A DNA stretch of 64,000 bases from a bacterium (GCA_031441465.1 JANOEP010000049.1:1-64000); one strand, 5' to 3'; shown: positions 31,281-52,553, numbered from the stretch's first letter. Program-made: numbers and translations. Notes: a model not told the origin generated them from the letters alone.

Positions 31281-31411
31281 CTTGCGAGCACAGAGTTCGT
31301 GGGCCGCGATCCACTTTCCACGCTTCATAATCCTGAACTTGACGCCTGGATCCGACTCCCACTCGTGCCCTGCGCGGGAAACGTGTGTCCGAAGCAGAGG
31401 AGACAGAAAGC

Positions 31412-34834: not shown

Positions 34835-35235
34835 GGTGTTATCTCCCGATCGTATGTCCACCTGGGGCGACCCCGCGCGGGTCGCCGGCGCCGGGGAACA
34901 TAATCACACGCGGCGACCACGAACAACCACCAATCGGACGCCGATCCGCACCTCCGCTGCCACGACTGCCCCCGTCGCGTCATCATCGGATCTTGCACGG
35001 TCGGCCCGCCGTCGGTCCGGAAATGCCTGACCCGTGTCGCCCGCCGTCCGATTGCGGAACTCATCCTCAGCGTCGTGGGGAGCCTGCCGGGTTCCGGGCG
35101 GCTAGGCGCGACACCGCCGGCACCCCGGTCTCCCGTGCCAACCCCCCGTCCACGAGCACCTTGCGACCCTCGTGCGGGGCGACTGCAATGCCATGTGCAA
35201 AGGGATGTTACGTAAACAGCGCCTGCCATGACCTG

Positions 35236-35251
35236 TGGCATATCGCTTGCA
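35236..35251 (+). promoter_or_regulatory. sigma54 (-24/-12) promoter
   Basis: TGGCATATCGCTTGCA has exact GG-N10-GC spacing and the TTGC core, about 105 nt upstream of the giant gene. Confidence 0.7.
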
Positions 35252-35356
35252 CCTGGACCCGCTGGCCCGTGCCGCAACGCCGGATCTCCATGTCCGGCTT
35301 TGCATTCTGCACGGCCGTCCGCGACCCGGACGTCCCTGGATCCCTTCCACGGCGGG

Positions 35357-38300
35357 ATGACCATGAACGAGCGCACGCGCAGCAAGTTCGCCATCGCCAA
35401 GTTCGCCACTGTCTTGGCTCTGGGCCTGATGGCCCTGGCCCCGACGGTCGCCCAGGCGTTCGACCACCTCGAGATCACGGTGATCAACCCCGAGATCGTC
35501 GACGGCCGGCCCTCGGTGACCATCTACGAACAGTTCAGCGTGCTCGTGCGGGCGGTGAACGCCGACGGCTCGACCGACACCGCGGCGGACTTCATCCGCG
35601 CCGCGCTGTCCTCGCCGGACGTGGCCGCGAACATGCCGGCGTCGGCCTACCTGCAGAACGGCGAGCGCATCTTCACCGGGATCGACTTCCTGGACGACGG
35701 GCAGCCGGTCCGGATGCGCGTCGCGGACCAGGACGACGGCTCGGTGCCGTTCGCCCAGGTGGAGATCAACTGCTACAACTTCGTTCACCATTTCGAATTC
35801 GGCGTGCCGCCCGGCGACAAGTTCGTCGGCCAGACCGTCGCGCTGACGGTCACCGCCCGCGATCATCTCAACGCGGCCGTCCGCAACTTCGGCGACGACG
35901 TGGTGCTGTCGCCGGCCCTCGGGCACTTCACCGCGGGCCCGTCGCTCACCGTCGGCGGCGGTTCGTTCGTCTTCGGCGTCGCCGCGGTCAACGTGGTCTT
36001 CCAGGGCACCGATCCCGCGACGCAGCAGAACACGGTCAACGCCCTGAACACCGTCGTCTACCCGACGCAGGCCTCGGCCGCGATCGGCAGCGGGCTCGTG
36101 GCGCCCCTCTACCCCGGGACCCTGAACCGCGTCGTGCTGCTGCTGCCGGGCCAGACCCTCACGCCCGGCGTCAGTCCGGGCCGCAGCGGCACGGCCATCG
36201 CACAGATCTCGGGCTTCCCGTTCACCGGCATCGACGTCTACGCGACCGACCAGTACTGGAACCCCGTGGCGGCGGGCCCCTTCCCGACGCTGGCCTGGAG
36301 CGCGAACGACGCGGCGCCCGGCGTGGCGCTACCCGCAGGCGGCCCCATGAGCAGCAACACGGTCCAGGACCAGGCGGCCACCCTGATGACCTCGGGCCTG
36401 CGCCAGATGACCGTCACCGCGTCGGGGGCCATCTCGACCTCGAGTTCGGCGAACGTCCAGGTCAACCCGGCGGGCCTCCACCACTTCTCGTTCGACTACG
36501 CCGTGCTCGACACCAACGTCGTCCAGGCGACCACGACCCCGTTCCAGATCCGGGTGCGCGCCTACGACTCGTTCAACAATCTCTTCCCGTACAACGGGCC
36601 GGTTTCGATGCGGGTGCGCATCGGCGCGAGCGACGAGAGCGCCGACTACCTGATCACGACCAGCAACAACTTCGTCGGCGGCGTGCTGAACGCCTCGATG
36701 CAGGTGACCAAGCGCGCGTTCAGCGCCCGGATCATCGTCGACAGCAACACCGGCGTGGTGACGCTGTCGGGCGACTTCCAGGTGAACGCGGGTCCCATGG
36801 AGAAGGTCCTGTTCACGCTGCCAGGCCAGACCTGGACGCCCGGTCTGAACGACCCGGACTTCGGCGGCAACATCGGCCTGCCCACGCCGATCGTCGCCGG
36901 GCAGATGGTCGAACCCCTGGAGATCCGGGCCGTGGACCGCTACGGGAACCTCGTCTCCGGCGCGCGCACCGTCGCCATCACCTGCCCGACGGGCCACCTG
37001 CTGCTGCTCGACGGCGGGGGCAGCCTGATCGAGAGCGGCGTCATCAGCCTGAACGGGACCGGCGTCTACAGCGCGTTGATGGCGACGTTCGGCGACCAGG
37101 TGCTGCAGGCCGGCGTCGGCGGGCAGGCGGACAGCTTCTCGAGCCCCCTGCACGTCTCGCCGAACACCTACCAGCGGCTGATGGTGATCGCGCCCGGCGA
37201 GACGCTGGACGCCGGCACGATCTACGCGCCCGGCAAGCTCGGCCTCCCGTCCCCGCAGGACGCGGGTGCGCCCTTCAACATCCAGGTCGTCGCCACCGAC
37301 TACTACTTCAACCCGATCGACGCGACGAGCCCGTTCCTGCCGATCCCGCTCAGCTTCACCAGCACCGATCTCCAGGCGACCCTGCCCGCCGGGCCCCAGA
37401 GCCTGCAGACCGGGACCGGCGTCTTCCAGGTCACGCTCAAGACGCTGGCCGACCCCAACCAGCAGCTGGTCACCGCCACCGACCAGGTGCGGTCCTACAC
37501 CGCGTCCGCGCTGATCCCGGTCGAGGCCGGCGTGATCGACCACTTCGAGATCGGCGTCAACAACGGCACCAACCCCGACCCGACCGACAGCCTCGAGTCC
37601 GTGCCCGACCACCAGGCCGGCGCTTGGCTGCCGAACCTCACCGTGATCGCGCGCGACGCCTACGGCAACCACATCCGCGCCTTCACCGACAGCGTCACCC
37701 TGCACCTGAACGTGGACGGCGACGTGCTGGCGCCGGTGCGCATCAGCCTCGCCGACGGCTACGGCAGCGGCACCTACCAGGGCGTGTGGCGCGGCAGCCT
37801 GCGCATCACGCGCGCCGGCTCGGGGGTCACCGTGTCGGCCTTGGACGACATCTACGGCCGCTCGGGCGTGAGTAACGCCTTCACCGTCTTCCCGGGCGCC
37901 TACGTCGGCTTGCAGGTCCTGCTGCCGGGCGAGACGGCCACACCGGGCGAAGCGCCCGGCAAGTTCGGCACCCCGTTGCCGGTGGTGGCCGGAGAAGAAG
38001 TGACCGCCGCGGTGTCCGCCCTGGACGCCTGGTGGAACCCGACGCCCGCCGGCCCCATCGTCAGGGTGTCGAGCAGCGGCTATGCAGACCTGATCTCGGC
38101 CAACGACGTGCCGCTGGATCCCGACGGCACGTCGGACTTCGCGCTGTCCTTCCGCACGGCGACGGCGCAGACGCTGCGCGCGCGGGACCTCGCGGTGTCC
38201 GCCCGCCGCGATTCCTGCCTCGCGACGGTGACCCCGGACGCGTTCTACCGCCTCCAGGCGATCGCGCCGGGAGAGACGCCGAATCCGGGCGGCCCCGAGG

Positions 38301-41300
38301 TCGACGGCAAGACCGGCGCGCCCGCGGTGCAGACCGCGACGCTGCAGTTCCCGCTGACCGTCAACGCCGTCGACCGCTTCTGGAACCGGGTCGACAACAG
38401 CTTCCACAACATCCACCTCGGCAGCGACGAGGGCTCCATCGTGCCGGGCAACCCCCTGAACAACGGCCAGGCGCTGGCCGCCGGCGAGATCGTGTTCCCC
38501 GTGGCGATCTCGAGCCTCGGCTACGCCACGCTCACGGCCTACGACCTGACCGACGCCGGGATCCTGGGCCACGACGTGGTCGTGCAGGTTGCCGCCGGGG
38601 CCCAGTACCGGATCACGACCCCCGACACCGCGCTCGTCGGTCCGCCGAGCACCTTCGCCATGACCGTGGAACTGGTGGACGAGGCCGGGACCGTCATGGT
38701 CAACGCCTACAACCCGGTCACCCTGCGCGTCCTGACGCCGACGCTGCAGCCGGCCCCGGGCGTGCTGCTGGCGACGGGCGCCCAGCTGACCGCCGGCGTC
38801 GTCACGATCCCCGGCCAGGCCTACGACATCGCCAGCCGCATCGTCGTCGAGGTGAGCGACACCTCCGGTCGGCTCGGCTACAGCGACATCATCCGCATGG
38901 ACCCCAACGGTCTCTGGTACGACGTCATCGTCGGCACGACCCCGACGCCCGTGACGGGGCCGCCGGCGGCCTTCCCGGTGACGGTGCGGCTGCGCGACAC
39001 CGAGACCGGGTCGCTCGTGGACGACGACCGTTTCTTCAGCGTCGCGGTCGTCGACGACGACGGCGCGCTCGGAGCGGGTGCCGTCGGCGTGACCACACGC
39101 CGCCTGGTCGACGGCCAGGTCACCTTCCAGCAGACCTACACGCAGGCCGGCGAGTTCGCGGTGCGCGCCTTCGATCCCAGCGGCCTGGCCGGCGACAGCC
39201 CCCTGTTCACCGTCCAGCCGAGCGGGTACCAGCGGCTGCAGCTGCTGGCGCCGGGGGAGACGGCACGACCGGGCGCCGCCGCCTTCGCCGCCACCGGCAA
39301 GTCGGCCCTGCCCGACACCCAGCGCTCGGGCGAACCGTTCCCGCTCGCGGTGCGCGCCGTGGACCAGTACTGGAACCCGATCGGCGACGAAGCGTCCGGC
39401 CGGATCCACCTCGCGGCGACCGACGGCTCGTTCTCCTGGCCGGACAACCCCGACCCGCAGGACGCGCCCTTCTTCCTGGGCGGCCGCGCCGTCGACGCCT
39501 TCCTGGTGGCCGAGGGCGAGGTGGGCGTGACCGTGAGCGATCTCGACGCGCCGCAGCTGCCGGGGCAGACCGTCGCGGTGCCGGTGCGCCGCCCGTACGC
39601 CTACGAGGTCACCGTGCCCGCGTCTGCCCAGACCGGCGGCATGCCGGGCTTCGCGATGACGGTGCGGCTGGTCGACCCCGACACCGGGGACCCCATCGCC
39701 GACGCGGGGCACCGCGTCACCCTGACGCCGCTGCGGGCCAACTTCGCGCCCGGCACGGGCGTGCTCGGCACCGCGGAGGTCTACCTGGTCAACGGCGTCT
39801 CGTTCATCAGCGACCAGAGCTACAGCGCCCTGGAAGACCTGCGGGTCCGCGTCGCCGACGACTACGGCCGGCAGGCCACGAGCGACGTCGTGACGATGGA
39901 GACGGGCGGCCTCTACTACGACGTGGTCGCGCCCGCGACCGCGACCGTGGGCGGCCCGGCCACCCTCCCGATCGCGGTCGACCTGATCGACAGCAACACC
40001 GGCGAGCGCGTGACGGCCCACAGCGGCCTGATCCAGATCTCGGTGCTCAGCGCCGCCACCGGCGAGGCCGGCGGCGGCGTGCTGGGCACCATCCAGCAGA
40101 TGCTGACCGGCGGCCACACCGACATCCAGCAGACCTACACGCTGGCCGAGGAAGTCTACTTCCGCGTCGTCGACGGCGACGGCAACGAGGGCTTCTCCAA
40201 CAGCTGCCGCCTGGAAGCCGACGGCTTCAAGCAGCTGCAGATCGTCGCGCCCGGCGAGACGCCCGAGCCCGGCGCCGAGGCCGGCACCGGCAAGATCGGC
40301 GCCCCGGTGGTCCAGACGGCGGGCGAGCCCTTCGTCGTGGAACTGCGCGCGGTCGACCAGTTCTTCAACCCCGTCACGTCGCTGGACGACGGCGCCCTGG
40401 AGCTGACCTGCTCGGAGCCCGATCTCTTCGCCTGGCAGAATCCCGCGGACTACCACGCCCCCTTCGTCGGCGGTCGCCGGCAGGTGGGGGTCGTGCTCGA
40501 CGGCGCGGGCAACCTGACCCTCAGCGCCGACGACACCCAGCACCCGTCGGCCGGCCAGGGCCACGTGACCATCCCGGTGGCGGAGGCCGTCTACCAGGTC
40601 ACCGTCCCGGACACGACCTTCGTGGGGCCGCCCTCGCGCTTCGCGGTGGGCGTGCGCCTGGTCAACCCGGCCACCGGGGCCACGGTGCCGGCGGGCAACC
40701 GCATCGCCCTGGAAGCGCTGCGCTACGACTTCGGCGCGCCCGAAGGACTGCTCGGCGTCACGGGGTGGACGCTGCTGCAGGGCTCGGCCGACATCGCCAC
40801 GCAGAGCTACGGCGTCAGCGAGCGCATCATCATCCGCGTGTCCGACGAGCGCGGCCGCACGACCGACAGCGCCGTGGTGACGGTCATCCCCGTGGGCGTG
40901 ACCTACGCCGTGACGGCCCCCGACACGGTCGTCGCCGGCGAGTCCTGGCCGCTGTCGGTCACGCGCGTCGACGTGACCACGGGCCGTCTGGTCACCGGCT
41001 ACGACGAGACCTTCAGCATCTCGGCGATCAACGCCTGGTCGGGCGCGGTGCGCCCCGATCCGGCGCTCGTGCCGACGGGCGTGCTGCGCTACACCTACGG
41101 CGCCACCGTCGAGGGCCGCGCGCTGCTCGACAACCAGGCCTACGACCGCGCCGAGTCGATCTACCTGCGCGTGACCGACGCCGCCGGCGGCGACGTGCTC
41201 AGCCGCCTGATCACCGTGCTGGCCGCGCCGGCCCGGTTCTTCACCCTGACCCTGCTCGAGCCGGACGGCTCGCCCTTCGACCGCGTCCTGCGGCCCGACC

Positions 41301-42148
41301 AGCAGATCCGCGTCCGCGTCGCGGCGCGCGACGAGGGCGGCAACCCGGCGCCCCGCGCCGCCGTCGCCTTCGAGATCCGCGCCGGAGAGGCCACGCTCGG
41401 CTCGGCGCGCGCCGGCGCGGTGCACCTGACGACCGGCAGCGACGGCACCGTCGAGACGACCCTGCGCATCGGCGCCTTCGGGACGACGGACGTCCTGCTG
41501 CGGGCCGGCGTGGACGCCCTCGACCCCGAGGAGGTCCTGCTGAGCGTGGCCGGGCCGCCGGTCACCACGGTGATGTTCACGGGCGTCGCCAGCGAGTACC
41601 TCGACGGCTGGTACGTCAGCGACGACACGCGGATCGCCCTGTCGGCGGTGCCGGGGATCCCCGAGGCGACCACGACGATCCGTTTCGACATCGATCAGGC
41701 CGACGGCGTGCAGCCGCTGACCGCCTACGAGGAGCCCTTCACCCTGGGCGACCTGATCCCGGGCGAATCCGGGGTTCATGTCCTGCGCTTCTTTGCCGAA
41801 GAGAACACCGGCGTGCAGGAGGCGCTGAGGGAAATCAAGCTGTACACCACGCAGGCGTTGGCCGAGGACCGGGAGATCACCAACCGCCCCAACCCGTTCA
41901 ACCCCGTGCTCGAGCTGACGCGGATCCTGTTCAAACCGACGGCCGCCGGTACCGTGAACATCACGATCTACGACCTCTACGGGGCGATCGTGCTGAATCA
42001 CCACCTGAACGCCGCCGCCGACCAGACCACCGAATTCGCCTGGAACGGCCGCAACGGCCAGGGCGACGTGGTGGCCAACGGCGGCTACATCTGCCGGGTG
42101 ACCGGCCAGGGCTTCGATTTCCGCCGCAAGATCGCGGTGGTGAAGTAG
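35357..42148 (+). CDS. giant (~2260 aa) repetitive beta-sandwich surface protein with FlgD/T9SS-like C-terminal domain
   Basis: Signal peptide ending 'VAQA-F'; two families of internal repeats; C-terminus 'NRPNPFNP...ITIYDLYG...WNGRNGQGDVVANGGYICRV...RKIAVVK'. The start may be 35357 or 35363. Confidence 0.85.
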   Translation: MTMNERTRSKFAIAKFATVLALGLMALAPTVAQAFDHLEITVINPEIVDGRPSVTIYEQFSVLVRAVNADGSTDTAADFIRAALSSPDVAANMPASAYLQNGERIFTGIDFLDDGQPVRMRVADQDDGSVPFAQVEINCYNFVHHFEFGVPPGDKFVGQTVALTVTARDHLNAAVRNFGDDVVLSPALGHFTAGPSLTVGGGSFVFGVAAVNVVFQGTDPATQQNTVNALNTVVYPTQASAAIGSGLVAPLYPGTLNRVVLLLPGQTLTPGVSPGRSGTAIAQISGFPFTGIDVYATDQYWNPVAAGPFPTLAWSANDAAPGVALPAGGPMSSNTVQDQAATLMTSGLRQMTVTASGAISTSSSANVQVNPAGLHHFSFDYAVLDTNVVQATTTPFQIRVRAYDSFNNLFPYNGPVSMRVRIGASDESADYLITTSNNFVGGVLNASMQVTKRAFSARIIVDSNTGVVTLSGDFQVNAGPMEKVLFTLPGQTWTPGLNDPDFGGNIGLPTPIVAGQMVEPLEIRAVDRYGNLVSGARTVAITCPTGHLLLLDGGGSLIESGVISLNGTGVYSALMATFGDQVLQAGVGGQADSFSSPLHVSPNTYQRLMVIAPGETLDAGTIYAPGKLGLPSPQDAGAPFNIQVVATDYYFNPIDATSPFLPIPLSFTSTDLQATLPAGPQSLQTGTGVFQVTLKTLADPNQQLVTATDQVRSYTASALIPVEAGVIDHFEIGVNNGTNPDPTDSLESVPDHQAGAWLPNLTVIARDAYGNHIRAFTDSVTLHLNVDGDVLAPVRISLADGYGSGTYQGVWRGSLRITRAGSGVTVSALDDIYGRSGVSNAFTVFPGAYVGLQVLLPGETATPGEAPGKFGTPLPVVAGEEVTAAVSALDAWWNPTPAGPIVRVSSSGYADLISANDVPLDPDGTSDFALSFRTATAQTLRARDLAVSARRDSCLATVTPDAFYRLQAIAPGETPNPGGPEVDGKTGAPAVQTATLQFPLTVNAVDRFWNRVDNSFHNIHLGSDEGSIVPGNPLNNGQALAAGEIVFPVAISSLGYATLTAYDLTDAGILGHDVVVQVAAGAQYRITTPDTALVGPPSTFAMTVELVDEAGTVMVNAYNPVTLRVLTPTLQPAPGVLLATGAQLTAGVVTIPGQAYDIASRIVVEVSDTSGRLGYSDIIRMDPNGLWYDVIVGTTPTPVTGPPAAFPVTVRLRDTETGSLVDDDRFFSVAVVDDDGALGAGAVGVTTRRLVDGQVTFQQTYTQAGEFAVRAFDPSGLAGDSPLFTVQPSGYQRLQLLAPGETARPGAAAFAATGKSALPDTQRSGEPFPLAVRAVDQYWNPIGDEASGRIHLAATDGSFSWPDNPDPQDAPFFLGGRAVDAFLVAEGEVGVTVSDLDAPQLPGQTVAVPVRRPYAYEVTVPASAQTGGMPGFAMTVRLVDPDTGDPIADAGHRVTLTPLRANFAPGTGVLGTAEVYLVNGVSFISDQSYSALEDLRVRVADDYGRQATSDVVTMETGGLYYDVVAPATATVGGPATLPIAVDLIDSNTGERVTAHSGLIQISVLSAATGEAGGGVLGTIQQMLTGGHTDIQQTYTLAEEVYFRVVDGDGNEGFSNSCRLEADGFKQLQIVAPGETPEPGAEAGTGKIGAPVVQTAGEPFVVELRAVDQFFNPVTSLDDGALELTCSEPDLFAWQNPADYHAPFVGGRRQVGVVLDGAGNLTLSADDTQHPSAGQGHVTIPVAEAVYQVTVPDTTFVGPPSRFAVGVRLVNPATGATVPAGNRIALEALRYDFGAPEGLLGVTGWTLLQGSADIATQSYGVSERIIIRVSDERGRTTDSAVVTVIPVGVTYAVTAPDTVVAGESWPLSVTRVDVTTGRLVTGYDETFSISAINAWSGAVRPDPALVPTGVLRYTYGATVEGRALLDNQAYDRAESIYLRVTDAAGGDVLSRLITVLAAPARFFTLTLLEPDGSPFDRVLRPDQQIRVRVAARDEGGNPAPRAAVAFEIRAGEATLGSARAGAVHLTTGSDGTVETTLRIGAFGTTDVLLRAGVDALDPEEVLLSVAGPPVTTVMFTGVASEYLDGWYVSDDTRIALSAVPGIPEATTTIRFDIDQADGVQPLTAYEEPFTLGDLIPGESGVHVLRFFAEENTGVQEALREIKLYTTQALAEDREITNRPNPFNPVLELTRILFKPTAAGTVNITIYDLYGAIVLNHHLNAAADQTTEFAWNGRNGQGDVVANGGYICRVTGQGFDFRRKIAVVK

Positions 42149-42156
42149 GAGAGGCC

Positions 42157-43491
42157 ATGCAGCGCCACGCGGACAACAACCAGCGCCAGCACCCCCGACG
42201 CGCCCGCGGTGCGACGGTCCGGCGATTCGTCGCGTTCCTGACCCTGGCGGCCGTCCTGGCCGCCGCGCCGGCCCTCGCCGGCCAGGACGGCGGCGCGCCC
42301 GGCGCGTTCCTGCGCTTCGGCAGCAGCGCCCGCAGCCTCGCCCTGGGCGGGGCCGTCGGCGCGCTCGGCGGCGACGTCGCCACCGTGTACTGGAACCCGG
42401 CCGCCTTGTCGCAGCTGCGCACGATGGAGGTGACGGCGATGGGAGCCACCCTCTTCGGCGACACCCGCTACTCGTACGTGGCGTTCGGCCTGCCGAGCGA
42501 GGGCCGGGGCACCTTCGCCTTCAGCGGCACCTTCACCAACAGCGGCGAGTTCGAGCGCGCGTCGGAGTGGATCGACATGAACGACACCTTCCAGGAGAAG
42601 GAAGGGATCTTCGCGCTGACCTACGGCCGCGGCAACAGCCGCCTGGGCTGGGGCGTCACCCTGAAGTCGATCTCCCAGGACGTGGGCGGCTTCACCGGCT
42701 CGGGCTATGGCGCCGACCTGGGCCTCTACCTGCGGCCCGAGCGCCGGCTCAGCCTGGGCGTCTCCTACCAGAACGCCCTGCAGCCCGAGATCACGCTGGT
42801 CGACCAACCCGAGAAGCTGGCCCGGACCCTGCGCGCCGGCGCCGGCCTGCATTTCTTCAACAACCGCATGCTCGTGCTGACCGACCTGGTCCGCACCGAC
42901 GGGATGGACCTGGACTTCCAGGGCGGCATCGAGACCTGGCCCCTGCGCCAGCTGGTGCTGCGCGGCGGTTACGACACCGTCCGCGACCAGACCAGCTTCG
43001 GGGCCGGCGTGCGCTGGCAGAACTGGCAGCTCGACTACGCCCACGTCGCGCACGACCTGGGCTCCACGACGGTGGTCAGCGCCACGATGCGCTTCGGCAT
43101 CACCGACGGCGTCGAGATCCACAGCGACCGCCTGCGCTTCAGCCCGTCGGGGAACGACCGCAGCGTGTCCTTCGGGGTCGACACGGCGCTGCGCGGCGAG
43201 GTGGCGGAGTGGCGCGTCGAGATCCGCAACGACCAGGGCGAACTGGTGCGGCGGATCTTCGAGGAGGGCCCGCCGCCGGAGGCCGTGGCCTGGGGCGGCG
43301 AGGACGAGAACGGCCGGCTGGTGGGCGACGGCGTCTACAGCGCCACCGTCTTCGTCATGGACGACCTGGGCCAGGAGTGGGACCACGAGGTCCAGGTGGA
43401 GATCATGGGCTTCCGCAACCGGACCCGGACCCCGATCCGCATCGACATCGACGGTTCCGAGAGCCTGAAATCGCGAGAGGACGACCGATGA
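42157..43491 (+). CDS. PorV/PorQ-like (FadL-type) outer membrane barrel with C-terminal FlgD-like domain
   Basis: 3' part of track ORF 38032..43491. 'GAFLRFGSSARSLALGGA...YWNPAAL', 'GYGADLGL', 'LDYAHVAHDLG', then 'FSPSG...AWGGEDENGRLVGDGVY'; AGGAG RBS. Confidence 0.82.
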   Translation: MQRHADNNQRQHPRRARGATVRRFVAFLTLAAVLAAAPALAGQDGGAPGAFLRFGSSARSLALGGAVGALGGDVATVYWNPAALSQLRTMEVTAMGATLFGDTRYSYVAFGLPSEGRGTFAFSGTFTNSGEFERASEWIDMNDTFQEKEGIFALTYGRGNSRLGWGVTLKSISQDVGGFTGSGYGADLGLYLRPERRLSLGVSYQNALQPEITLVDQPEKLARTLRAGAGLHFFNNRMLVLTDLVRTDGMDLDFQGGIETWPLRQLVLRGGYDTVRDQTSFGAGVRWQNWQLDYAHVAHDLGSTTVVSATMRFGITDGVEIHSDRLRFSPSGNDRSVSFGVDTALRGEVAEWRVEIRNDQGELVRRIFEEGPPPEAVAWGGEDENGRLVGDGVYSATVFVMDDLGQEWDHEVQVEIMGFRNRTRTPIRIDIDGSESLKSREDDR

Positions 43492-46400
43492 AACGACATC
43501 CCGCCGCCTGGCTGCCGGCCCTGCTGGTGCTGCTGGTCTTCGCCGCCCTGCCGGTCTTCGCCGGCGACGACGACTCGGTGGTCCCGAACGAGGATGCGCT
43601 CTGGCGCGCCGCCGGCGACACCTTCGCCCGCGACACGGACAAGAGCAACGCCCTGCAGCAGTTCCAGCTGTACCTGACCCATTACAAGAAGACCGACCGC
43701 GCGGCCCGCGCCCAGTACATGGTGGCCGAATGCTACTTCTGCAACGGCGACTACGACACGGCGCTGCGCGAGTACGCGAGGGTCGGGAAGTTCAAGGGCG
43801 GCGACCCGTACCTTGCGGGCAGCGCGCTGCTGCGCCAGGGCGAATGCCAGTTCAACCTGGGCAAGCAGGAGCGGGCCCTGGAGACCTTCACGCAACTGCT
43901 GCAGCAGAGCACCGACAGCTTCCTCGCCGGCGAGGCCCTGTTCGCCATGGGCCAGACCCAGGCCTCGCTGCAGGACTGGCGCAGCGTGGAGAAGACCTAC
44001 AAGCAGCTGCTGGCCGACCGGCCCGGCTACCAGAGGCTGCCGCAGGTGCAGTTCGTCCTGGGCCTGTTCGCCTACGTGAAGCAGGACTACGAGGGGGCCA
44101 CGCAGCACTTCGAGAAGGTGGGCACGGACCTGGGCCTCTACTACCTCGGCCGCTGCCTCGAGGCTTCCGGCCAGTACATCCTGGCCGTGCAGCGCTACCG
44201 CCAGGCCCTGCGGCTCTTCCCGGACAGCCCGCTGGCCGACGACGCCGCGTTCAGCGTCGCCGAGGCTTTCTACAACAGCGACCAGAACAAGGTCGCCGCG
44301 CGCAGCTACCGCGACTTTCTCGAAGGGTACCCCGACAGCAAGTTCGTGCCGATGGCGCGTTACAAGCAGGCCTGCGTGGACTACCGCTCCGGCGAGTACA
44401 ACGAGTGCGTGCGCAAGCTCGAGGATCTCTGCAAGGATCTCGGCGGCGAGCCGATCTGCGCGCCGGCCAACTACCTGATGGGCTCGGCCTGGATGGCGCT
44501 CGGGCGGACCAGCCACGCCATCTTCGCCTTCACCGAGGTGGTCAAGGGCTACCCGGATTCGGAACTCGCCAGCGCCGCCATGCACAAGGTCGTCTACGCC
44601 TACATCGCCGAGAAGAACTACCCCCAGTCCATCCTGATGGCACACGAGTTCATGGACATCTTCCCCGGCGATCCGCTGTCGGCCCGCGTCCAGGTGCTCC
44701 TGGGCTACGCCCACAAGGAGCTGCAGGAGTACGACCTCGCGGTGCGCGAATTCCAGAACGTGATGGACCGCCACGTCAACACCGACGCCGGCGAGCGGGC
44801 GCTGTTCCTGGCGACCGACACCTACCTGAAGCTGGAGCAGTACGACCGCCTGATCACCAACTACCACTTCATCGCCAACCGCCTGCTGCCCACGCCCAGC
44901 CCGTGGCGCGCGCGGACCTACTATCAGCTCGGCGAGGCCTACTACCACGAGGGTCTCTTCCGCGAAGCGGGCGGCATGTACCGGCTGGTGCTGACCGGCT
45001 ACCCGCGCAGCGAGGTGGCGGCGGCCAGCCTGCAGGGCCTCGTCGCCAGCTACAGCCAGATCGGCGAGTACGACCTGGCCCTGGAGGAACAGGAGAAGTT
45101 CCTCTTCGAGCTGGCGAACGCCGACAGCGAAGAGGGCGGCAACTCGCTGGCCCTCGGCTCGCTCTACTTCAACCAGCACGACTACCAGAAGGCGCTGGAG
45201 GAGATCACAAAATTCCTGGAGCGCAACCCCGAAGGCCCGCAGGCCGCGGCCGCGCTGCTCAACCAGGGCGACTGCTTCTACCGCCTGCAGTACTACGAGA
45301 ACGCGGTGGAGGCCTGGCGGAAGCTGGTCACGAACTTCCCGCGGGCGAGCGAAGCCGACGAGGCGCTCTACCGCCTGGCCGACACCCAATTCGGTCTGGC
45401 CCGCTTCGAAGAGGCGCGAGCCAGCTACCTGACGCTGCAGAAGCGCACGCCCGACGGCGCCCACGCCGCCGACGCCGCCTTCGGCTTGGCCAACTGCCAC
45501 TACAACCAGCAGCAGGACCAGGCGGCGATCACGGCCTTCCAGGCCTTCCTCGAGGATTTCCCGGAGGACCCCCGCGTCGAGGACGCGGAACTGGGCATCC
45601 AGAGCTGCTACTACCGCAGCGGCAAGGACATGGAGGAGTACCTGGGCACCCGTCCGGACAGCCCCCTGGCCGGGGACTATTACTGGACTAAAGGTCAAAA
45701 CTTGTTTGCCGAAGGAAACTACGAGGCCGCTGCCAAGGCGTTCGAAAAAGTCACCCTGGACTACGCCGACAGCGAGAGCGCCCCGGGCGCCCTCTTCTAC
45801 CTGGCCGAGAGCTACTACCGCTTGGAGCAGATGCCGATGGCGCTCGCAGGCTACCGCAGTTTCCTGAAGACGAACCCCGACCACGAGCTGGTCGGGTTGT
45901 CGCGCTTCCGCGAGGGCACCGTCCTGTACAAGACGGAGCAGTACGAGGAGGCGGCGGAAGCCTACGAGTACCTGGTCGACACCATGCCCGCCGGCGAGTA
46001 CTCGCCCCTGGCCCTGTTCAACGCCGGCCTCTGCTACCAGGAACTCGAGGACTGGCCGGCCGCCATCGGCGCGCTGATCCGCTTCCAGGCGGACTACCCC
46101 GCCGACGAGCGGGCCAAGGGCCTCGCCTTCCAGATCGCCACGCTGTACCAGGACGAACTCGGCGATTTCGAGAACGCCGCGACGGCCTACCAGAAGGCGC
46201 TCGAGAAGGGCGAAGCCGGCATCGAGGAGATCGGCTACCGGCAGGGGCAGTGCTACGAGAAGCTCGACCGCATCGAGCAGGCCGTCGCCAGCTACGAGAT
46301 GTCCGCCAGCGGCGCCGACGTCGCGGCCCCGCACCGCATCGCCAGCCTGGCCCAGATCGGCCAGATCAGCGAGGAGCGCGGGGACTGGAACACCGCCGTC

Positions 46401-46502
46401 CAGGCCTACAACAGGATCGTGCAGACCAACGGCAAGCCGGAATGGACGGCGATGGCCGAGGGCCGGCTCGCCGAAATCCAGGCCATGTCCGCCGGCAACT
46501 AG
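43488..46502 (+). CDS. large exported TPR protein (CpoB/BamD-type TPR repeats)
   Basis: Signal peptide 'MKRHP...PVFA-G'; many repeats of the form 'Y...l..(Y/F)P.S..a..A.(F/Y)..(A/G)e.YY'; ATGA overlap with the barrel gene. Confidence 0.85.
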   Translation: MKRHPAAWLPALLVLLVFAALPVFAGDDDSVVPNEDALWRAAGDTFARDTDKSNALQQFQLYLTHYKKTDRAARAQYMVAECYFCNGDYDTALREYARVGKFKGGDPYLAGSALLRQGECQFNLGKQERALETFTQLLQQSTDSFLAGEALFAMGQTQASLQDWRSVEKTYKQLLADRPGYQRLPQVQFVLGLFAYVKQDYEGATQHFEKVGTDLGLYYLGRCLEASGQYILAVQRYRQALRLFPDSPLADDAAFSVAEAFYNSDQNKVAARSYRDFLEGYPDSKFVPMARYKQACVDYRSGEYNECVRKLEDLCKDLGGEPICAPANYLMGSAWMALGRTSHAIFAFTEVVKGYPDSELASAAMHKVVYAYIAEKNYPQSILMAHEFMDIFPGDPLSARVQVLLGYAHKELQEYDLAVREFQNVMDRHVNTDAGERALFLATDTYLKLEQYDRLITNYHFIANRLLPTPSPWRARTYYQLGEAYYHEGLFREAGGMYRLVLTGYPRSEVAAASLQGLVASYSQIGEYDLALEEQEKFLFELANADSEEGGNSLALGSLYFNQHDYQKALEEITKFLERNPEGPQAAAALLNQGDCFYRLQYYENAVEAWRKLVTNFPRASEADEALYRLADTQFGLARFEEARASYLTLQKRTPDGAHAADAAFGLANCHYNQQQDQAAITAFQAFLEDFPEDPRVEDAELGIQSCYYRSGKDMEEYLGTRPDSPLAGDYYWTKGQNLFAEGNYEAAAKAFEKVTLDYADSESAPGALFYLAESYYRLEQMPMALAGYRSFLKTNPDHELVGLSRFREGTVLYKTEQYEEAAEAYEYLVDTMPAGEYSPLALFNAGLCYQELEDWPAAIGALIRFQADYPADERAKGLAFQIATLYQDELGDFENAATAYQKALEKGEAGIEEIGYRQGQCYEKLDRIEQAVASYEMSASGADVAAPHRIASLAQIGQISEERGDWNTAVQAYNRIVQTNGKPEWTAMAEGRLAEIQAMSAGN

Positions 46503-46532
46503 CCGGCTCAACTCAGAGAGAGGAACCTTCAC

Positions 46533-47258
46533 ATGCTGGGGATGTCGCTCACCAAAGTCATTTTCGGTTCGTGGTCGATGCTCATGCTCATCGCCTGCTC
46601 CATCGTCACGATCGCCTACGCGATCGAGCGCGTGGTGTATTTCCACCGTTCCCGTTCCGACGTGCGGGCCTTCATGAAGGACCTCGCCGCCAGGATGAAG
46701 ACCGGCGACATGAAGGCCGCCACCCAGTGGTGCGACCAGCAGAAGGGCGCCGCCGCCCGCGTCGTCAGCCAGTGCCTGCCGCAGGTGCACATCAACGCCT
46801 CGGAACTCAAGCAGCGCTTCGACACCGCCATCGAGATGGAGCAGGTGGAGATGGAGCGCAACCTGAGCATCCTGGGCACGATGAGCAACATCGCCCCGCT
46901 GCTGGGCCTCTTCGGCACGGTGATCGGCATCGTCCGCTCCTTCAACGACATCGGACGCACCGGCGCCGGCGGCAGCGCCGTGGTGGCCATGGGCGTCGGC
47001 GAGGCGCTGACGGCCACGGCGGCCGGCATCTTCGTGGCCGTCATCGCCACGATCTGCTTCAACTACTGCGTGCGCCGCATCCGTACCCGCATCATCGAGC
47101 TGGAGGACGTCCGCGAGGAGTTCTTCTGCGTGCTGCGCGGCCTCGCGCGGCAGGACGGTCCCGCGTCTGCGCGCGCCAAGGCGGACAAGCACGACGTCAA
47201 CGCCCTGTGCGACGCCGTCGTCACTTCGGCCCAGGAACCCGCCGCGGTCGGCCGGTAG
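46533..47258 (+). CDS. MotA/TolQ/ExbB proton channel protein
   Basis: 'LGTMSNIAPLLGLFGTVIGIVRSF' and 'GVGEALTATAAG'. Confidence 0.9.
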   Translation: MLGMSLTKVIFGSWSMLMLIACSIVTIAYAIERVVYFHRSRSDVRAFMKDLAARMKTGDMKAATQWCDQQKGAAARVVSQCLPQVHINASELKQRFDTAIEMEQVEMERNLSILGTMSNIAPLLGLFGTVIGIVRSFNDIGRTGAGGSAVVAMGVGEALTATAAGIFVAVIATICFNYCVRRIRTRIIELEDVREEFFCVLRGLARQDGPASARAKADKHDVNALCDAVVTSAQEPAAVGR

Positions 47259-47273
47259 GAAGCGAGACCCGAC

Positions 47274-47705
47274 GTGGCACGATCCGACCGATCGCAACTG
47301 CACCAGGAGAGTTCGCCCAACATCACCCCGTTGGCGGACGTCACTACGATCCTGATCATCGTGTTCCTGATGACCATGCCGGCCATCCTCGGCAACGGCA
47401 TCCAGGTCAACGCGACGCGCGCCGAGGCCAGCGAGACCGTGGTCACCACGCGCGAGCAGCAGGACCAGGAGATGCTCATGGTGAGCGTCGCCCCCGAGGG
47501 CATCAAGATCAACGGCGAGACGGTGGTGCTCGCGGAACTCGAGCGGCGGCTGAAGGACGCGCTCTCCACGCGCACCGACAAGACCGTCGTCATCGTGCCG
47601 AGCGACTTCGTGAAGCTCGGCGACGTGGTCGACGTCATGGACGCCGCCAAGGGCGGCGGCGCCAGCAGCCTGGCGCTCCTGAACCGCAAGGAGGGGGCGC
47701 GATGA
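47274..47705 (+). CDS. ExbD/TolR family protein
   Basis: 'PNITPLADVTTILIIVFLM' with the TM Asp. Confidence 0.85.
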   Translation: MARSDRSQLHQESSPNITPLADVTTILIIVFLMTMPAILGNGIQVNATRAEASETVVTTREQQDQEMLMVSVAPEGIKINGETVVLAELERRLKDALSTRTDKTVVIVPSDFVKLGDVVDVMDAAKGGGASSLALLNRKEGAR

Positions 47706-48112
47706 AGGTCTACCGCTACGAGTGCAAGACGAACGTCGCGCCGCTGATCGACGTCTCGCTGTGCATCGTCCTGACCCTGATGATGATCTCGCCGTTCCTC
47801 AACGAAACCGCCCAGGTGGTGGACCTGCCCGTGGCCCGCGCGAGCCAGATGGACGACACCGACAACACCGAGGTCATCTTCACCCTCGACGGCAAGATCT
47901 ACGTGGGCGATGAGCAGATCGCGCTCGAGGAGGTGCGGACCCGGCTGACGCCCCTGTTCGAGAACAACCCGGACGCCGTGGCGGTCATCAAGGCGGACAA
48001 GAGCCTGCTGTACGGTGATGTCGAGCGCCTCATCGCCGAGGTCGAGGGCGCCAAGGCGGCCCGCATCGCCATCTCCACCGGCAAGAAGGACACGGAGGGG
48101 GCGGAGCTATGA
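47702..48112 (+). CDS. second ExbD/TolR family protein
   Basis: 3' part of track ORF 46250..48112. 'NVAPLIDVSLCIVLTLMM' and 'VIKADKSLLYG'; ATGA overlap. Confidence 0.85.
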   Translation: MKVYRYECKTNVAPLIDVSLCIVLTLMMISPFLNETAQVVDLPVARASQMDDTDNTEVIFTLDGKIYVGDEQIALEEVRTRLTPLFENNPDAVAVIKADKSLLYGDVERLIAEVEGAKAARIAISTGKKDTEGAEL

Positions 48113-49452
48113 TGATGCAGGAAATCAGTCGCCGCGCGGCGACGACGGGCGGCTTCACCGCCAGCTTCGTCATCCACGCCAGCATCATCCTGCTGCTCAT
48201 GCTGATGATGCGCGAGGGCGCCCGCAAGGCGGGCGAGGCGTTCGACGAGCTGACGGAGATCGCCTACATCGAAGCCCAGTACGGCGAGGACGTGGCCCAG
48301 AAGGTCCGCCTCAAGACGCAGCCGGTGGTCCAGCCGCAACAGGAGGCCCCGGCCGAAACGAAGCTCGACGAGGCGCCGGTCCCGCAGCCGGAGACGGCGC
48401 AGCCCGCGCTGCAGAGCCGCCCGCTGCTGCAGACCCTGCCCAACAAGCTGGCGACGCGGCCCTTGCTGCCGAGCCGGCGGGCCGCGGACGTGGACGCGCC
48501 CCGGCTGTCGACCGCCCAGCAGCGCCAGTTCCTGGACACCACTTCGCGCCAGCTGGATTCCCGGACCTTCGCCGACGCCGCGCCGCGGCTCGACACGCGC
48601 AACCTGCGGGATCCCTCGGCCATGGCGGCGGACGCGAACGCGCCGCGCCTGACGTCGAGAGAGGCGCAGGCCGCGTTCCAGGGCAACGACGTGGCGCTGG
48701 TCGGGCGCAAGAGCAGCGTGGACCTCTCCGAGGTCGACTTCGAGGTCGGGCAGGGCGGCACCTCGTCCGGCGGCGGCCGCATGGCGCTGCAGTTGGCCAC
48801 CGGCGGCAGCGAGACGGGCCACGCCGGCCTGGTCGGCGGCCGTCTCGAAGAAGGCCAGACGGCCTACCAGGGTTCGGTGGCCGCGCTGGTCCAGACCGCG
48901 AAGGACAACGAGCGGCGGGCCGCGGCCGCGATCGACGTAGCGGCTCCCGCGCGTTCCACCGAGGGCCGCACCACGCTGCTCGACTACGGCCCGGGCGGCA
49001 CGACCGGCGCCACCGGCCAAGCCAGCCTGCGCGGCCGGCAGCAGGCTCCGGCCGAGGCGCCGAGCGCCGCGGCGGTGGCCCAGGCCACCGGCAAGCAGGC
49101 GGTGCAGCCGCCGACGCAACTGGCCGAGACCCAGGCCAAGGCCATGGGCGGCAAGGGCGTCTCGATGACCATCAGCGGCCAGATCAGCGACCGCAAGGTC
49201 GTCGCCAGCGCCATGCCGCTCTACAGCGAGGCGGCCCGCAAGGCCGGCTGGGAGGGCGTGGTGGCCGTGCACTTCACGGTCCTGCCCGACGGCCGGGTCA
49301 AGGACAACATGTACTTCGATCAGACCTCGGCCCACCGCGACCTGAACCGGGCCGCGATGGACGCCGTCAAGCAGTTCCGCTTCGAGCCTCTCTCGGGCGC
49401 GGACCGTGTCGAACAGTGGGGGGTGATCACGATCGTCTTCCGCCTCAATTGA
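48109..49452 (+). CDS. long TonB/TolA-family energy transducer
   Basis: TM with the S-x3-H motif ('SFVIH'), long low-complexity linker and TonB_C 'PLYSEAARKAGWEGVVAVHFTVLPDGRV...AVKQFRFEP'. Confidence 0.85.
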   Translation: MMMQEISRRAATTGGFTASFVIHASIILLLMLMMREGARKAGEAFDELTEIAYIEAQYGEDVAQKVRLKTQPVVQPQQEAPAETKLDEAPVPQPETAQPALQSRPLLQTLPNKLATRPLLPSRRAADVDAPRLSTAQQRQFLDTTSRQLDSRTFADAAPRLDTRNLRDPSAMAADANAPRLTSREAQAAFQGNDVALVGRKSSVDLSEVDFEVGQGGTSSGGGRMALQLATGGSETGHAGLVGGRLEEGQTAYQGSVAALVQTAKDNERRAAAAIDVAAPARSTEGRTTLLDYGPGGTTGATGQASLRGRQQAPAEAPSAAAVAQATGKQAVQPPTQLAETQAKAMGGKGVSMTISGQISDRKVVASAMPLYSEAARKAGWEGVVAVHFTVLPDGRVKDNMYFDQTSAHRDLNRAAMDAVKQFRFEPLSGADRVEQWGVITIVFRLN

Positions 49453-49505
49453 GCGGAACCCCGACAACTCCATAGCCGACGAACCTGAGTCAAAGGACAC
49501 ACATC

Positions 49506-50444
49506 ATGACTCGCAACGACTTCAGGGGATTGTTGACCATCGCCGCGGGCGTCTGCCTCCTGTTCGGCAGCGCTCCGGCCCCCGCCTGGACGGAACAGGA
49601 AACGGCCGCCAACCAGGGCCTGCCCGAGATGGTCGTGGAAGCCGAAAACCAGGTCCTGCAGGACATCACCAAGAGCACGTTCGAGGTCGCGCTCAGCGCC
49701 GCGATCATCGACACGTTCTTCACGGACTTCGATGAGGCGGTCCTGGTGATCAGCCCCGTCGAGGGCCTGCAACCCTTCCTGAACAACCCTCGCGACCTGC
49801 ACAGCGACCAGGTCCCGCACTGCTGGCTGCGGGACCCGGCGCAGCCGCCGGTGGTGACGTTCTTCCCGGAAGACCCCGAAGGGCACCAGGCCCGCCGCTG
49901 GGCGCTGACGGTGACCGACTTCCGGGGCGCCCCCTTCCGCCACTTCGAGGAGAAGGGCCAGCCGCCGGACCAGGTCGCCTGGGACGGCCGCGGGGACCTC
50001 AACGAGATGCTGCAGGTGGGCTACCCCTACAGTTACGTCTTCAGCGTCACCGACAAGGGCACCAACACCTACAACTACGCCGGGATCAGCTTCCGTATCC
50101 CGGCCGTGGACTACCGCGAGAAGAACGAGCGGCGGCTCGAGTTCACCGGCGACGAGGTGTTCCAGAAGGGCGGCACGCTCCTGCGCGACAGCGGCCGCGG
50201 CTGGCTGACCCGCGCGGCGGACCAGATCCGCCGGGACCATCCCTATTCGCCGCTGAAGGTCGTGGTGCAGGCGGAGAACAAGCTCCTGGCCCAGGACCGC
50301 GCCAAGGTCGTGGCCGAGTTCCTGGTCGGGTGCATGCTGCTCTCCGACGACTGGATCAAGGTCGAGGCCGTGGCCAAGCCCGATCTCCGCTCGGAGATGG
50401 ACGGCTCGGTGAGCATCCGCGTGGAGCACGCTGCGGGAGTTTGA
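49506..50444 (+). CDS. exported protein with FlgD-like domain and degenerate OmpA-like C-terminal domain
   Basis: Signal peptide; 'WALTVTDFRG...GQPPDQVAWDGRG'; C-terminal 'EVFQKGGTLL...LTRAADQI...LAQDRAKVVAEFL'. Confidence 0.65.
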   Translation: MTRNDFRGLLTIAAGVCLLFGSAPAPAWTEQETAANQGLPEMVVEAENQVLQDITKSTFEVALSAAIIDTFFTDFDEAVLVISPVEGLQPFLNNPRDLHSDQVPHCWLRDPAQPPVVTFFPEDPEGHQARRWALTVTDFRGAPFRHFEEKGQPPDQVAWDGRGDLNEMLQVGYPYSYVFSVTDKGTNTYNYAGISFRIPAVDYREKNERRLEFTGDEVFQKGGTLLRDSGRGWLTRAADQIRRDHPYSPLKVVVQAENKLLAQDRAKVVAEFLVGCMLLSDDWIKVEAVAKPDLRSEMDGSVSIRVEHAAGV

Positions 50445-52305: not shown

Positions 52306-52553
52306 ACGATGAATTGACTCCAGATATCAACAAAAAGCGAACGCCGACTGATCGAGTAAATGATTACGGATTTGTGAGTTACCGCACATTGCCTGATCGC
52401 CGGAACAGATCCGTGCAATTAATAGTTGTGCCGTGGTTCTTAATTTTGTGTTATAGTATTGATGTTCGCCGCAGGTCTCCCCAGGACCTGGCGGGCAGAG
52501 GATCGAGCACCGAGCACGGCGATGGTCGTCGCCGTCAGCTACCAGGAGAACCG

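Follow-up and report, generated by a model that had tools for sequence, protein, structure and literature searches.

An eight-gene cassette with Ton-type motor genes and a PorV-family barrel gene

The 64-kb window considered here, that is, the whole stretch of DNA that was analyzed, is contig C49 from the genome of an uncultured member of the Krumholzibacteria (3.49 Mb in 74 contigs, 96.8% complete, with about 70% G+C). Positions 35357-50444 of this window carry eight tightly packed genes on the + strand, henceforth the cassette, which encode a giant secreted protein, an outer-membrane barrel of the PorV/PorQ family, a TPR protein, a set of ExbB, ExbD, and TonB relatives, and an exported protein with immunoglobulin-like (Ig) and OmpA/MotB-like parts (Table 1). 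The junctions between successive genes measure 8, -4, 30, 15, -4, -4, and 53 nt, with ATGA overlaps at 43488, 47702, and 48109. Coordinates, junctions, and profile matches all agree with a first-pass annotation, made from the sequence alone, which had described eight co-oriented genes with these domains and three ATGA overlaps. The same annotation had stated that no TonB-dependent transporter (TBDT), TolB, or Pal belongs to the operon; a profile search of the eight genes found none of the three and no Plug or TonB_dep_Rec domain, in agreement with that statement. The nearest TBDT gene lies at 26612-28882 on the opposite strand.

Table 1. Features of the cassette and their positions in the window (aa, amino acids).
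Feature	Position	Strand	Description
Sigma-54-type -24/-12 promoter element	35236-35250	+	TGGCAT-N5-TTGC, 107 nt ahead of the first ATG
Gene 1	35357-42148	+	Giant secreted Ig-repeat protein, 2263 aa
C-terminal sorting-type domain of the giant protein	41888-42139	+	aa 2178-2261; FlgD_ig, TIGR04183 (scores in text)
Gene 2	42157-43491	+	PorV/PorQ-family barrel with C-terminal Ig domain
Gene 3	43488-46502	+	1004-aa all-TPR protein
Gene 4	46533-47258	+	ExbB/TolQ-family proton-channel subunit
Gene 5	47274-47705	+	ExbD/TolR-family subunit 1
Gene 6	47702-48112	+	ExbD/TolR-family subunit 2
Gene 7	48109-49452	+	TonB-like force transducer, 447 aa
Gene 8	49506-50444	+	312-aa exported Ig + OmpA/MotB-like protein
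Strand-like motif of the last protein	49620-49661	+	LPEMVVEAENQVLQ, aa 39-52, conserved inside the disordered N-terminus

The cassette is conserved as a unit

Related loci were collected by alignment of ExbB orthologues with one genome per species, and the best 80 of 536 relatives were kept. The window-type ExbB was found in 61 of these 80, and these 61 are the related loci counted below. All eight genes occurred in the same order in 41/61 loci, and a further 19, truncated at contig ends or interrupted by an insertion, kept the order in what was present; the remaining locus (L071) is a paralogue with motor genes only, and its genome carries a full cassette as well. The downstream Crp-family gene recurred in 10 of the loci and rpsD in 14. 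Because these flanks recur in close relatives only, both genes were rejected as members of the cassette and the conserved block was taken to be exactly eight genes. Loci L053, L057-L067, L069, and L092, in which ExbB is 58-83% identical to that of the window, carry the titles Fibrobacter sp., Fibrobacteraceae, Latescibacterota, or Gammaproteobacteria; these titles look like labelling or binning noise, and we do not take them as spread across phyla.

A second lineage was recovered from 12 loci around hits to a profile of the barrel with its Ig domain (barrel+Ig) in other families of the phylum. Two of the 12 are of the window type, their first proteins measuring about 2280-2340 aa, and the other 10 are of a deeply divergent type that keeps the same order: a protein of about 1050 aa with Big_1 and FlgD_ig domains, a barrel with FlgD_ig, a TPR protein of about 1040 aa, ExbB, two ExbD proteins, a TonB_C protein of about 308 aa, and a last protein with FlgD_ig. 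Proteins of the divergent type are 23-44% identical to those of the window. The synteny check suggested in the first-pass annotation was thus answered in favor of a conserved unit, both by the related loci and by the shared architecture of the divergent lineage.

The distribution of the cassette was followed in 151 genomes of the phylum, all from one class. A full-length barrel+Ig marker was present in 98/151 genomes, and two more copies were cut at contig ends. With a profile of the last protein, the window type (at least 377 bits) was detected in 48 genomes and either type in 94. Divergent-type matches to the last gene in G037, G138, G054, G008, and G061 contain in-frame stops and may be decaying copies or cross-frame alignments. 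As to spread beyond the phylum, an exhaustive homologue search returned 102 cluster representatives at E ≤ 1e-30 and 3030 at E ≤ 1e-10. For ten distant homologues of the barrel, three cluster names were informative, and one cluster of barrel+Ig homologues bears the name Firestonebacteria. For the last protein, the nearest Atlas clusters occur most often in Elusimicrobiota and WOR-3, which is a lead without alignment.

The motor subunits, the TonB-like arm, and the TPR protein

The ExbB protein matched PF01618 at 98.6 bits and fell below the equivalog cut-offs for both TolQ (104 vs. 221 bits) and ExbB (83 vs. 206 bits). ExbD subunits 1 and 2 matched PF02472 at 68.3 and 66.5 bits, respectively, with an Asp in the membrane helix of each (D22 and D17); against the TolR equivalog, the two proteins scored 45.5 and 56.8 bits (cut-off 127.3), and the TolA model gave no hit in the operon. 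The TonB-like protein was recognized by PF03544 (52.4 bits) and by TIGR01352 (55.3 bits, cut-off 27.1), with its TonB_C domain at residues 370-446. Its membrane helix, preceded by only about 15 residues, contains S19 and H23, which were invariant among 37 orthologues. A conserved segment just outside the membrane is followed by a variable, low-complexity linker of about 300 aa and then by TonB_C. The TPR protein consists of TPR repeats throughout, has a signal peptide but no lipobox Cys, and scored 303 bits in 12 stretches against the YbgF/CpoB-type repeats of TIGR02795. These matches and residues agree with what had been annotated, namely a TPR protein of about 1000 aa, a TolQ/ExbB protein, two unlike ExbD proteins with the transmembrane Asp, and a long TonB/TolA protein. 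As judged from the sequences, the cassette encodes a complete motor: ExbB, two ExbD proteins with the membrane Asp, and a TonB protein with S19/H23 and a canonical TonB_C.

In a tree of ExbB proteins, the window type formed one clade (99/96) and the divergent type another (100/100). Both clades were split (100/97) from a group holding the host TolQ and E. coli TolQ/ExbB, and they also stood apart from the host Ton-type ExbB, in a tree with an unresolved backbone and several long reference branches. A grouping of the motor with canonical Tol-Pal or TBDT-linked Exb proteins, which the first-pass annotation had named among the outcomes that would count against its proposal, was not seen in this tree.

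The barrel resembles PorV and adjoins a giant protein with a sorting-type tail

The product of gene 2 passed the PorV/PorQ family model NF033709 (115.9 bits, cut-off 90, residues 51-316) and stayed below the equivalog cut-offs for PorV (NF033710, 31 vs. 250 bits) and PorQ (NF033711, 87.5 vs. 220 bits); a FlgD_ig match covered residues 334-398. The AlphaFold2 model (predicted local distance difference test score, pLDDT, 86.6) showed a barrel at aa ~45-314 with an N-terminal plug region and 14 strands at 90-313, an Ig domain at aa 319-416, and a tail at aa 417-444 that is disordered yet conserved. The first two Foldseek ranks went to PorV chains from the translocon of F. johnsoniae, 8gl6_F (E 2e-11) and 6h3i_F (E 1e-10) (PDB codes: 8GL6 and 6H3I), whereas FadL and TodX followed from E 3e-8 with a root-mean-square deviation of 7.5-8, against 5.2 for PorV. 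The description of the barrel as PorV-like is therefore upheld by both the family cut-off and the model. A plain FadL importer, another outcome that had been listed as adverse, was rejected, as the barrel is nearer PorV than FadL.

Outer-membrane barrels with an even number of strands have both termini in the periplasm. As the modelled barrel has 14 strands, we infer that its Ig domain and tail are periplasmic. Adjacency to a tailed protein is the basis on which we consider the barrel a candidate binder of the C-terminal domain (CTD) of a protein exported by the secretion system of type IX (T9SS).

That neighbor, the giant protein, begins with a signal peptide, gave a weak Big_1 match in the profile search, and contains a repeat motif of the type LLPGET..PG...G.P, read in the sequence near aa 262, 486, 608, 853, 966, 1293, and 1626. 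Its nearest Atlas clusters are unnamed or belong to Big_1/invasin-type Ig families, which we regard as a lead only. The giant protein is the least conserved of the eight cassette proteins and evolves the fastest, as exposed proteins do. Its C-terminus passed the FlgD_ig cut-off (33.7 bits, cut-off 27) and matched the CTD end of the PorU model, as did about 50 other tails of the same kind on open reading frames (ORFs) of the host genome. Accordingly, the annotated repetitive protein of about 2260 aa with a T9SS-like CTD was recovered in length and by FlgD_ig, while TIGR04183, the T9SS type A tail model, was narrowly missed. An exported 648-aa protein with the same FlgD_ig/T9SS-type tail is encoded at 31385-33331, 2 kb upstream of the cassette, and is not kept there in relatives.

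Fusions provide a further view of the barrel. Twelve longer barrel homologues were scanned: three (P0160, P0201, and P0221) combine barrel, FlgD_ig, and OmpA domains, four have C-terminal TPR repeats, and one carries a TolB_N/LpoB-like domain. P0100 joins the barrel and about 900 aa of TPR in one chain. In a distant bacterium (L113, 3504-12821), a bona fide OmpA domain (67 bits) forms one chain with the barrel, and the genes after it encode a TPR protein of about 1025 aa, a FlgD_ig protein, ExbB, two ExbD proteins, and TonB_C. PorV-type barrels in the fusion-bearing lineages are habitually joined to periplasmic Tol-Pal-like modules, and the fusions with OmpA-like or TPR parts support a physical coupling of the products of genes 2, 3, and 8.

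The last protein combines an Ig domain, an OmpA/MotB-like fold, and a conserved disordered motif

The AlphaFold2 model of the last protein (pLDDT 73.2; residues 26-56 and 83-108 below 50) has a disordered N-terminus, an Ig domain at aa ~117-213, and an OmpA/MotB-like fold at aa ~228-306. Pfam OmpA matched at E 0.0084 only, while Foldseek assigned the OmpA_C fold with a probability of 1.00 (E 3e-7 to 1e-4 against PA0833, MotB, OmpA, Pal, and YiaD). The Ig domain matched that of the barrel at 27-40 bits in 12/12 loci, on which basis we take the two Ig domains to be homologous. Both folds of the annotated FlgD-like and OmpA-like anchor are thus present; the usual peptidoglycan-binding loop, however, appears to be missing.

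The strand-like motif in the disordered N-terminus has the consensus LPEMVVEAENxVRQ, and V44, N48, and K56 were invariant or nearly so among 34 orthologues. A related motif, SLT[VI]EGEDR[VI]R[IV]EF, occurs in the divergent lineage. In pattern, the motif resembles the mature N-terminus of E. coli TolB, EVRIVIDSG, which we take to be the TolA-binding box; it is a resemblance only. The motif is a candidate equivalent of a TonB box or TolB box, to which TonB_C might bind.

Type IX, Tol-Pal, and Ton systems of the host

The host genome encodes SprA on C54 (470.8 bits summed, cut-off 200) and, on C10, a PorU-like protein with a Peptidase_C25 domain (403 bits, just below the cut-off of 420). The gene of the latter adjoins a PorV-family gene that is likely the PorV orthologue. 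A search of the host with the PorV/PorQ profile gave 13 matches, eight of them above the cut-off. SprA was found in 150/151 of the sampled genomes, including all of the ~50 genomes without the cassette. Because SprA is near-universal and the cassette is not, we regard the cassette as an accessory module. The suggestion of the first-pass annotation that it represents a T9SS variant with a swapped motor is not supported as a general statement, given SprA in 150/151 genomes versus the cassette marker in ~100/151, and a host with its own SprA and PorU-PorV. The cassette was likewise rejected as a general T9SS motor, as it is missing from a third of the genomes with SprA.

Models for GldL, GldM (two models), and GldN (TIGR03513, TIGR03517, PF12081, and TIGR03523) found no match in the host; they also found none in the control genomes or in five others (with unreliable-looking Marinifilum, Cytophagia, KSB1, and Zhuqueibacter labels), so that the searches had no positive control and absence is not established. 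A GldK search gave partial sulfatase-fold hits only, with no L/M/N-like genes after them.

A complete TolQ-(TolR)-TolA-TolB-Pal-CpoB locus lies on C46, and the cassette was therefore rejected as the organism's Tol-Pal system. The first-pass annotation had also noted a separate exbB-exbD-exbD-tonB operon; it is present, but begins at position 33 of the window rather than 45 (33-2510). This operon is ordinary-looking, with a TonB of 265 aa, and a 908-aa clostripain-family (C11) protein follows at 3279-6005. In all, the host has six ExbB/TolQ paralogues.

Three other host loci contain related parts. On one strand of C54:13110-23883 (L043), the best host PorV-family match is accompanied by genes for a TBDT-like protein, an unknown protein of 944 aa, two proteins with GWxTD domains, a solitary ExbB/TolQ-like protein of 324 aa with no ExbD, and a TolC-like protein; this block is possibly another link of PorV-type barrels to the ExbB/TolQ motor family. 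At C9:97020-107400 (L044), a 3109-aa tailed protein is followed by the closest host paralogue of the barrel (30% identity, no Ig domain), with no motor genes adjoining. C9:157069-162795 (L045) encodes a 617-aa TPR protein, ExbB, ExbD, and ExbD and, after a gap, a PBP-like protein, an arrangement that recalls the TPR-tolQ-tolR-tolR modules in the accessible text of PMC12204202.

Promoter and setting of the cassette

The sigma-54-type element is the window's only + strand match with no more than one mismatch. It falls inside a longer ORF beginning at 35228, which favors the start of gene 1 at 35357. Upstream of gene 1 in 13 cassettes, including that of the window, the match was 9/10 in five and 8/10 in two; five had none, and one was masked by N. 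The rpoN gene was found in the host genome. As the promoter is of the sigma-54 type, expression of the cassette would be conditional. Between this element and the first ATG, the 5' leader contains a G+C-rich hairpin followed by a T-rich run (35279-35298), which may be an attenuator or chance; an Rfam scan of 34850-35450 found nothing meaningful and no family for the hairpin.

Metatranscriptomic contigs 90-95% identical to the cassette were found in three runs from two studies, with DNA carry-over possible, and one 3.56-kb contig spans the junctions between genes 1 and 2 and genes 2 and 3. As assembled contigs are uninformative on transcript ends, strand, or level and cannot prove transcription, they offer a weak hint that the cassette genes are co-transcribed. 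Downstream of the cassette, tandem paralogous genes without a Pfam family lie at 52314-53234 and 53450-54139; close relatives have 2-4 tandem copies at that place.

Comparison with known envelope systems

Full-text searches turned up no account of such a gene set; related clusters could be listed in the supplementary tables of PMC3169522 and PMC12204202, which lay outside the scope of the searches. The closest published analogue of the cassette is the Agl-Glt 'core complex', ancestral to the gliding machinery of Myxococcus xanthus (Luciano et al. 2011). In the accessible text of PMC3169522, this complex comprises aglR, aglQ, aglS, gltC, gltD, gltE, gltG, and one extra gene, and the core set forms one operon in non-myxobacteria, where its function is given as unknown. 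The accessible parts of PMC3169522 and PMC11761067 describe a TolQ-like and two TolR-like proteins, the TonB-like GltG, a TPR pillar of ~1000 aa, outer-membrane barrels, and a surface adhesin. The cassette resembles this system, as far as it is set out there, in its TolQ-like and two unlike TolR-like proteins, in a TonB-like protein with a long disordered linker, in its ~1000-aa TPR protein, and in an output of an outer-membrane barrel and a putative surface adhesin. The layout of the core complex, in which a TolQ-like, two unlike TolR-like, a TonB-like, and a large TPR protein are encoded in one cluster, is found in the cassette as well. In contrast to Agl-Glt, the barrel is of the PorV/PorQ family and bears an Ig domain, the tail of the adhesin is a candidate type IX sorting domain, a single TPR protein is encoded instead of three, and the TonB-like protein has no cytoplasmic FHA domain. 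Against the GltC model the cassette scored 23.4 bits (cut-off 450), and against the AgmX/PglI tail 22.9 bits (cut-off 40). The comparison is one of layout and profiles.

The cassette shares with the T9SS pairs (PorV with cargo CTD on SprA, PorU-PorV, and PorZ-PorQ) a barrel beside a protein with a C-terminal sorting-type domain, in a host that has SprA, PorU, and PorV. Unlike T9SS PorV and PorQ, the cassette barrel has an extra Ig domain and tail, both probably periplasmic, and misses the equivalog cut-offs, and the known carrier and attachment pairs are not in one operon with a motor. To our knowledge, known T9SSs are driven by GldLM/PorLM and never by ExbB-ExbD-TonB. The T9SS-linked PorE, described in the accessible text of PMC12204202 as a fusion of CpoB, TolB, Ig, and Pal parts, shares periplasmic domain types (TPR, Ig-like, and OmpA-like) with the products of genes 3 and 8.

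Features in common with Tol-Pal are a motor of the 5:2-type family, an arm resembling TolA/TonB whose helix carries the S...H motif, TPR repeats of the CpoB type, a fold like that of Pal, and a short N-terminal strand motif as a candidate handle; the cassette differs in having no TolB propeller, no lipidated Pal, two different TolR-like genes, and a separate ExbB clade. With the Ton system it shares ExbB, ExbD with the membrane Asp, and a TonB with TonB_C above the family cut-off, but it has no 22-stranded plugged transporter and its motor stands apart from that of the host's Ton operon. In the accessible text of PMC12204202, modules of a gene for a TPR protein, one tolQ-like gene, two heterologous tolR-like genes, and a vWA-type transducer are presented as a sign of further systems driven by the proton motive force that await discovery. 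The cassette has the same series of a gene for a TPR protein, one for a TolQ-like protein, an unlike TolR-like pair, and then a membrane-anchored transducer; the transducer, however, ends in TonB_C instead of the vWA fold, and a PorV-like barrel with a sorting-tailed giant protein is not mentioned for the modules in that text. By their defining features, the cassette is outside both Tol-Pal and the TBDT-linked Ton systems; it would work like Tol-Pal or Agl-Glt in principle.

A model for the cassette and its alternatives

We favor a reading in which the cassette encodes a proton-driven, envelope-spanning force transducer that acts on a dedicated barrel of the PorV family, and in which this barrel holds a giant Ig-repeat adhesin exported by the type IX route; we put the probability of this reading at roughly 0.45. 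From gene content, order, conservation, folds, and family memberships, we infer the contacts, the direction of the force, and the cellular purpose as follows. The giant protein would pass the inner membrane by Sec and the outer membrane via the ordinary SprA translocon of the host, using its C-terminal sorting domain, and would then be retained by the neighboring barrel, as PorZ is with PorQ and PorU with PorV. In the periplasm, the Ig domain of the barrel may dock to the homologous Ig domain of the last protein, which would add an OmpA/MotB-like foot. ExbB with a heterodimer of the two ExbD proteins would convert proton flow into movement of the TonB-like arm, and the 1004-aa TPR protein may be the scaffold of this arm, the role that GltD has for GltG in the Agl-Glt model. 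TonB_C could grip the strand motif of the last protein, in the manner of TolA on the TolB N-terminus or TonB on a TonB box; in the models, conserved yet disordered segments sit where such a candidate strand-capture motif is expected. Pulling would engage, release, or drag the unit of barrel and adhesin, which would make the cassette a motor-controlled clutch or mover for one adhesin. A complex prediction with residues 27-312 of the last protein, 316-444 of the barrel, and 340-447 of the TonB-like protein gave 0.01, 0.31, and 0.01, against a mark of 0.32 and with no controls run, and speaks neither for nor against these contacts.

Several observations weigh against this reading. In L083, L096, L106, and probably L095, the TPR gene is separated from exbB, and the cassette thereby halved, by a 4.4-kb insertion of unrelated genes, which encode an enoyl-CoA hydratase, a ferredoxin and, on the opposite strand, a hybrid histidine kinase. 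The barrel+Ig marker was not found in ~50/151 genomes, including some that are 96-100% complete and all six of one family, so the cassette is dispensable. The tail of the giant protein scored 21.4 bits against TIGR04183, just below the cut-off of 23, and the P0100 fusion could be a frameshift artefact at a 4-nt gene overlap. The foot is also in doubt. OmpA and Pal bind peptidoglycan by a loop with a conserved Asp which, together with an Arg, holds the peptide stem. R265 of the last protein is invariant, but only two residues separate strand 250-256 from helix 259-277 in the model, and a 7-residue gap stands opposite the loop of E. coli Pal in a weak hhalign alignment (E 0.02, probability 2.3%). 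The last protein thus appears to have no usual peptidoglycan-binding loop, and with the Asp loop seemingly missing, its OmpA-like foot may not bind the wall. Finally, the purpose of the cassette, whether movement, clutch, or release, is a guess, and we know of no motility phenotype for this uncultured phylum.

Among the alternatives, a Tol-Pal-like tethering paralogue fares best, although we consider it unlikely. In this case, the motor and its arm would mobilize the OmpA/Pal-like protein via a TolB-like box and locally stabilize or remodel the outer membrane, for example where the giant protein or a coat is anchored, with the adhesin itself unmoved. For ExbB and both ExbD proteins, the best-scoring models are indeed those of TolQ and TolR, the TPR protein reaches its 303 bits on YbgF/CpoB repeats, and the last protein offers both a Pal/MotB-like fold and a motif patterned like the mature N-terminus of E. 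coli TolB; a T9SS-linked precedent is PorE, with CpoB, TolB, Ig, and Pal fused, as given in the accessible text of PMC12204202. However, all Tol equivalog cut-offs were missed (TolQ 104 vs. 221; TolR 45-57 vs. 127), the operon has neither a TolB propeller nor a lipoprotein Pal, the motor does not group with TolQ in a host whose complete Tol-Pal locus is on C46, and the peptidoglycan-binding loop seems missing from the last protein. This reading also fails to account for the strict linkage with a barrel of the PorV type and a giant protein bearing a sorting-type tail.

It is improbable that the cassette is a new kind of TonB-dependent importer, in which a plugged barrel of the FadL/PorV superfamily would be opened by the TonB-like protein while the giant Ig protein traps a substrate, large or hydrophobic, at the cell surface in the style of SusCD-type systems. 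The membership of the barrel in the FadL superfamily, its N-terminal plug region, and a full ExbB-ExbD-TonB set, the usual energiser of import, agree with such a role, but the barrel is nearer PorV than FadL/TodX and passes the PorV/PorQ model only, PorV is known as a carrier or anchor and not as a channel, the operon has no enzymes, binding proteins, or inner-membrane transporters, and the best motif resembling a TonB box is on the periplasmic last protein instead of the barrel.

Slightly more improbable still is a dedicated secretion energiser, in which a Ton-type motor in place of GldLM/PorLM would pull the 2263-aa cargo, together with a PorV-like shuttle of its own, away from the SprA translocon. 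SprA, PorU, and PorV are present, GldL, GldM, and GldN gave no match in the host and GldK partial hits only, and a protein of such length might call for a carrier and an energy supply to itself. However, the GldL/M/N searches had no positive control and do not establish absence, and type IX export evidently works without the cassette because SprA is kept in 150/151 genomes including all ~50 without it and about 50 other tailed proteins of the host have no such motor. Nor is the size of the cargo the reason for the motor, since the cargo of the divergent lineage measures only ~1050 aa.

Returning to the force-transducer reading, a broader version of it would recognize a class of envelope machine not described before, in which a 5:2 Ton/Tol-type motor with a TonB-like arm, a TPR scaffold, an Ig/OmpA-like adaptor, and a PorV barrel moves, tensions, or releases an adhesin. 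Next to Agl-Glt and GldLM-SprB, such a class would add a third way, independently arrived at, of gliding or making contact by means of adhesins, and it would extend over a number of uncultured phyla (Krumholzibacteriota and, by leads only, Elusimicrobiota, WOR-3, and Firestonebacteria). We regard this broader proposal as doubtful.

Implications

The known proton-driven motors of this family work in import (the Ton system), in keeping the envelope stable (Tol-Pal), in gliding (Agl-Glt), and in flagella. The cassette joins a Ton-type motor to outer-membrane parts of the type IX kind, and the two are strictly kept together. It also raises the question of what energises SprA in a phylum where GldL, GldM, and GldN were not found by the searches above. 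The fusions of the barrel with Ig and OmpA domains, or with TPR repeats, are direct hypotheses for contacts that can be tested with a few recombinant domains. The cassette is thus an eight-protein system for asking how force reaches PorV-like barrels and how bacteria outside the Bacteroidota handle many sorting-tailed surface proteins.

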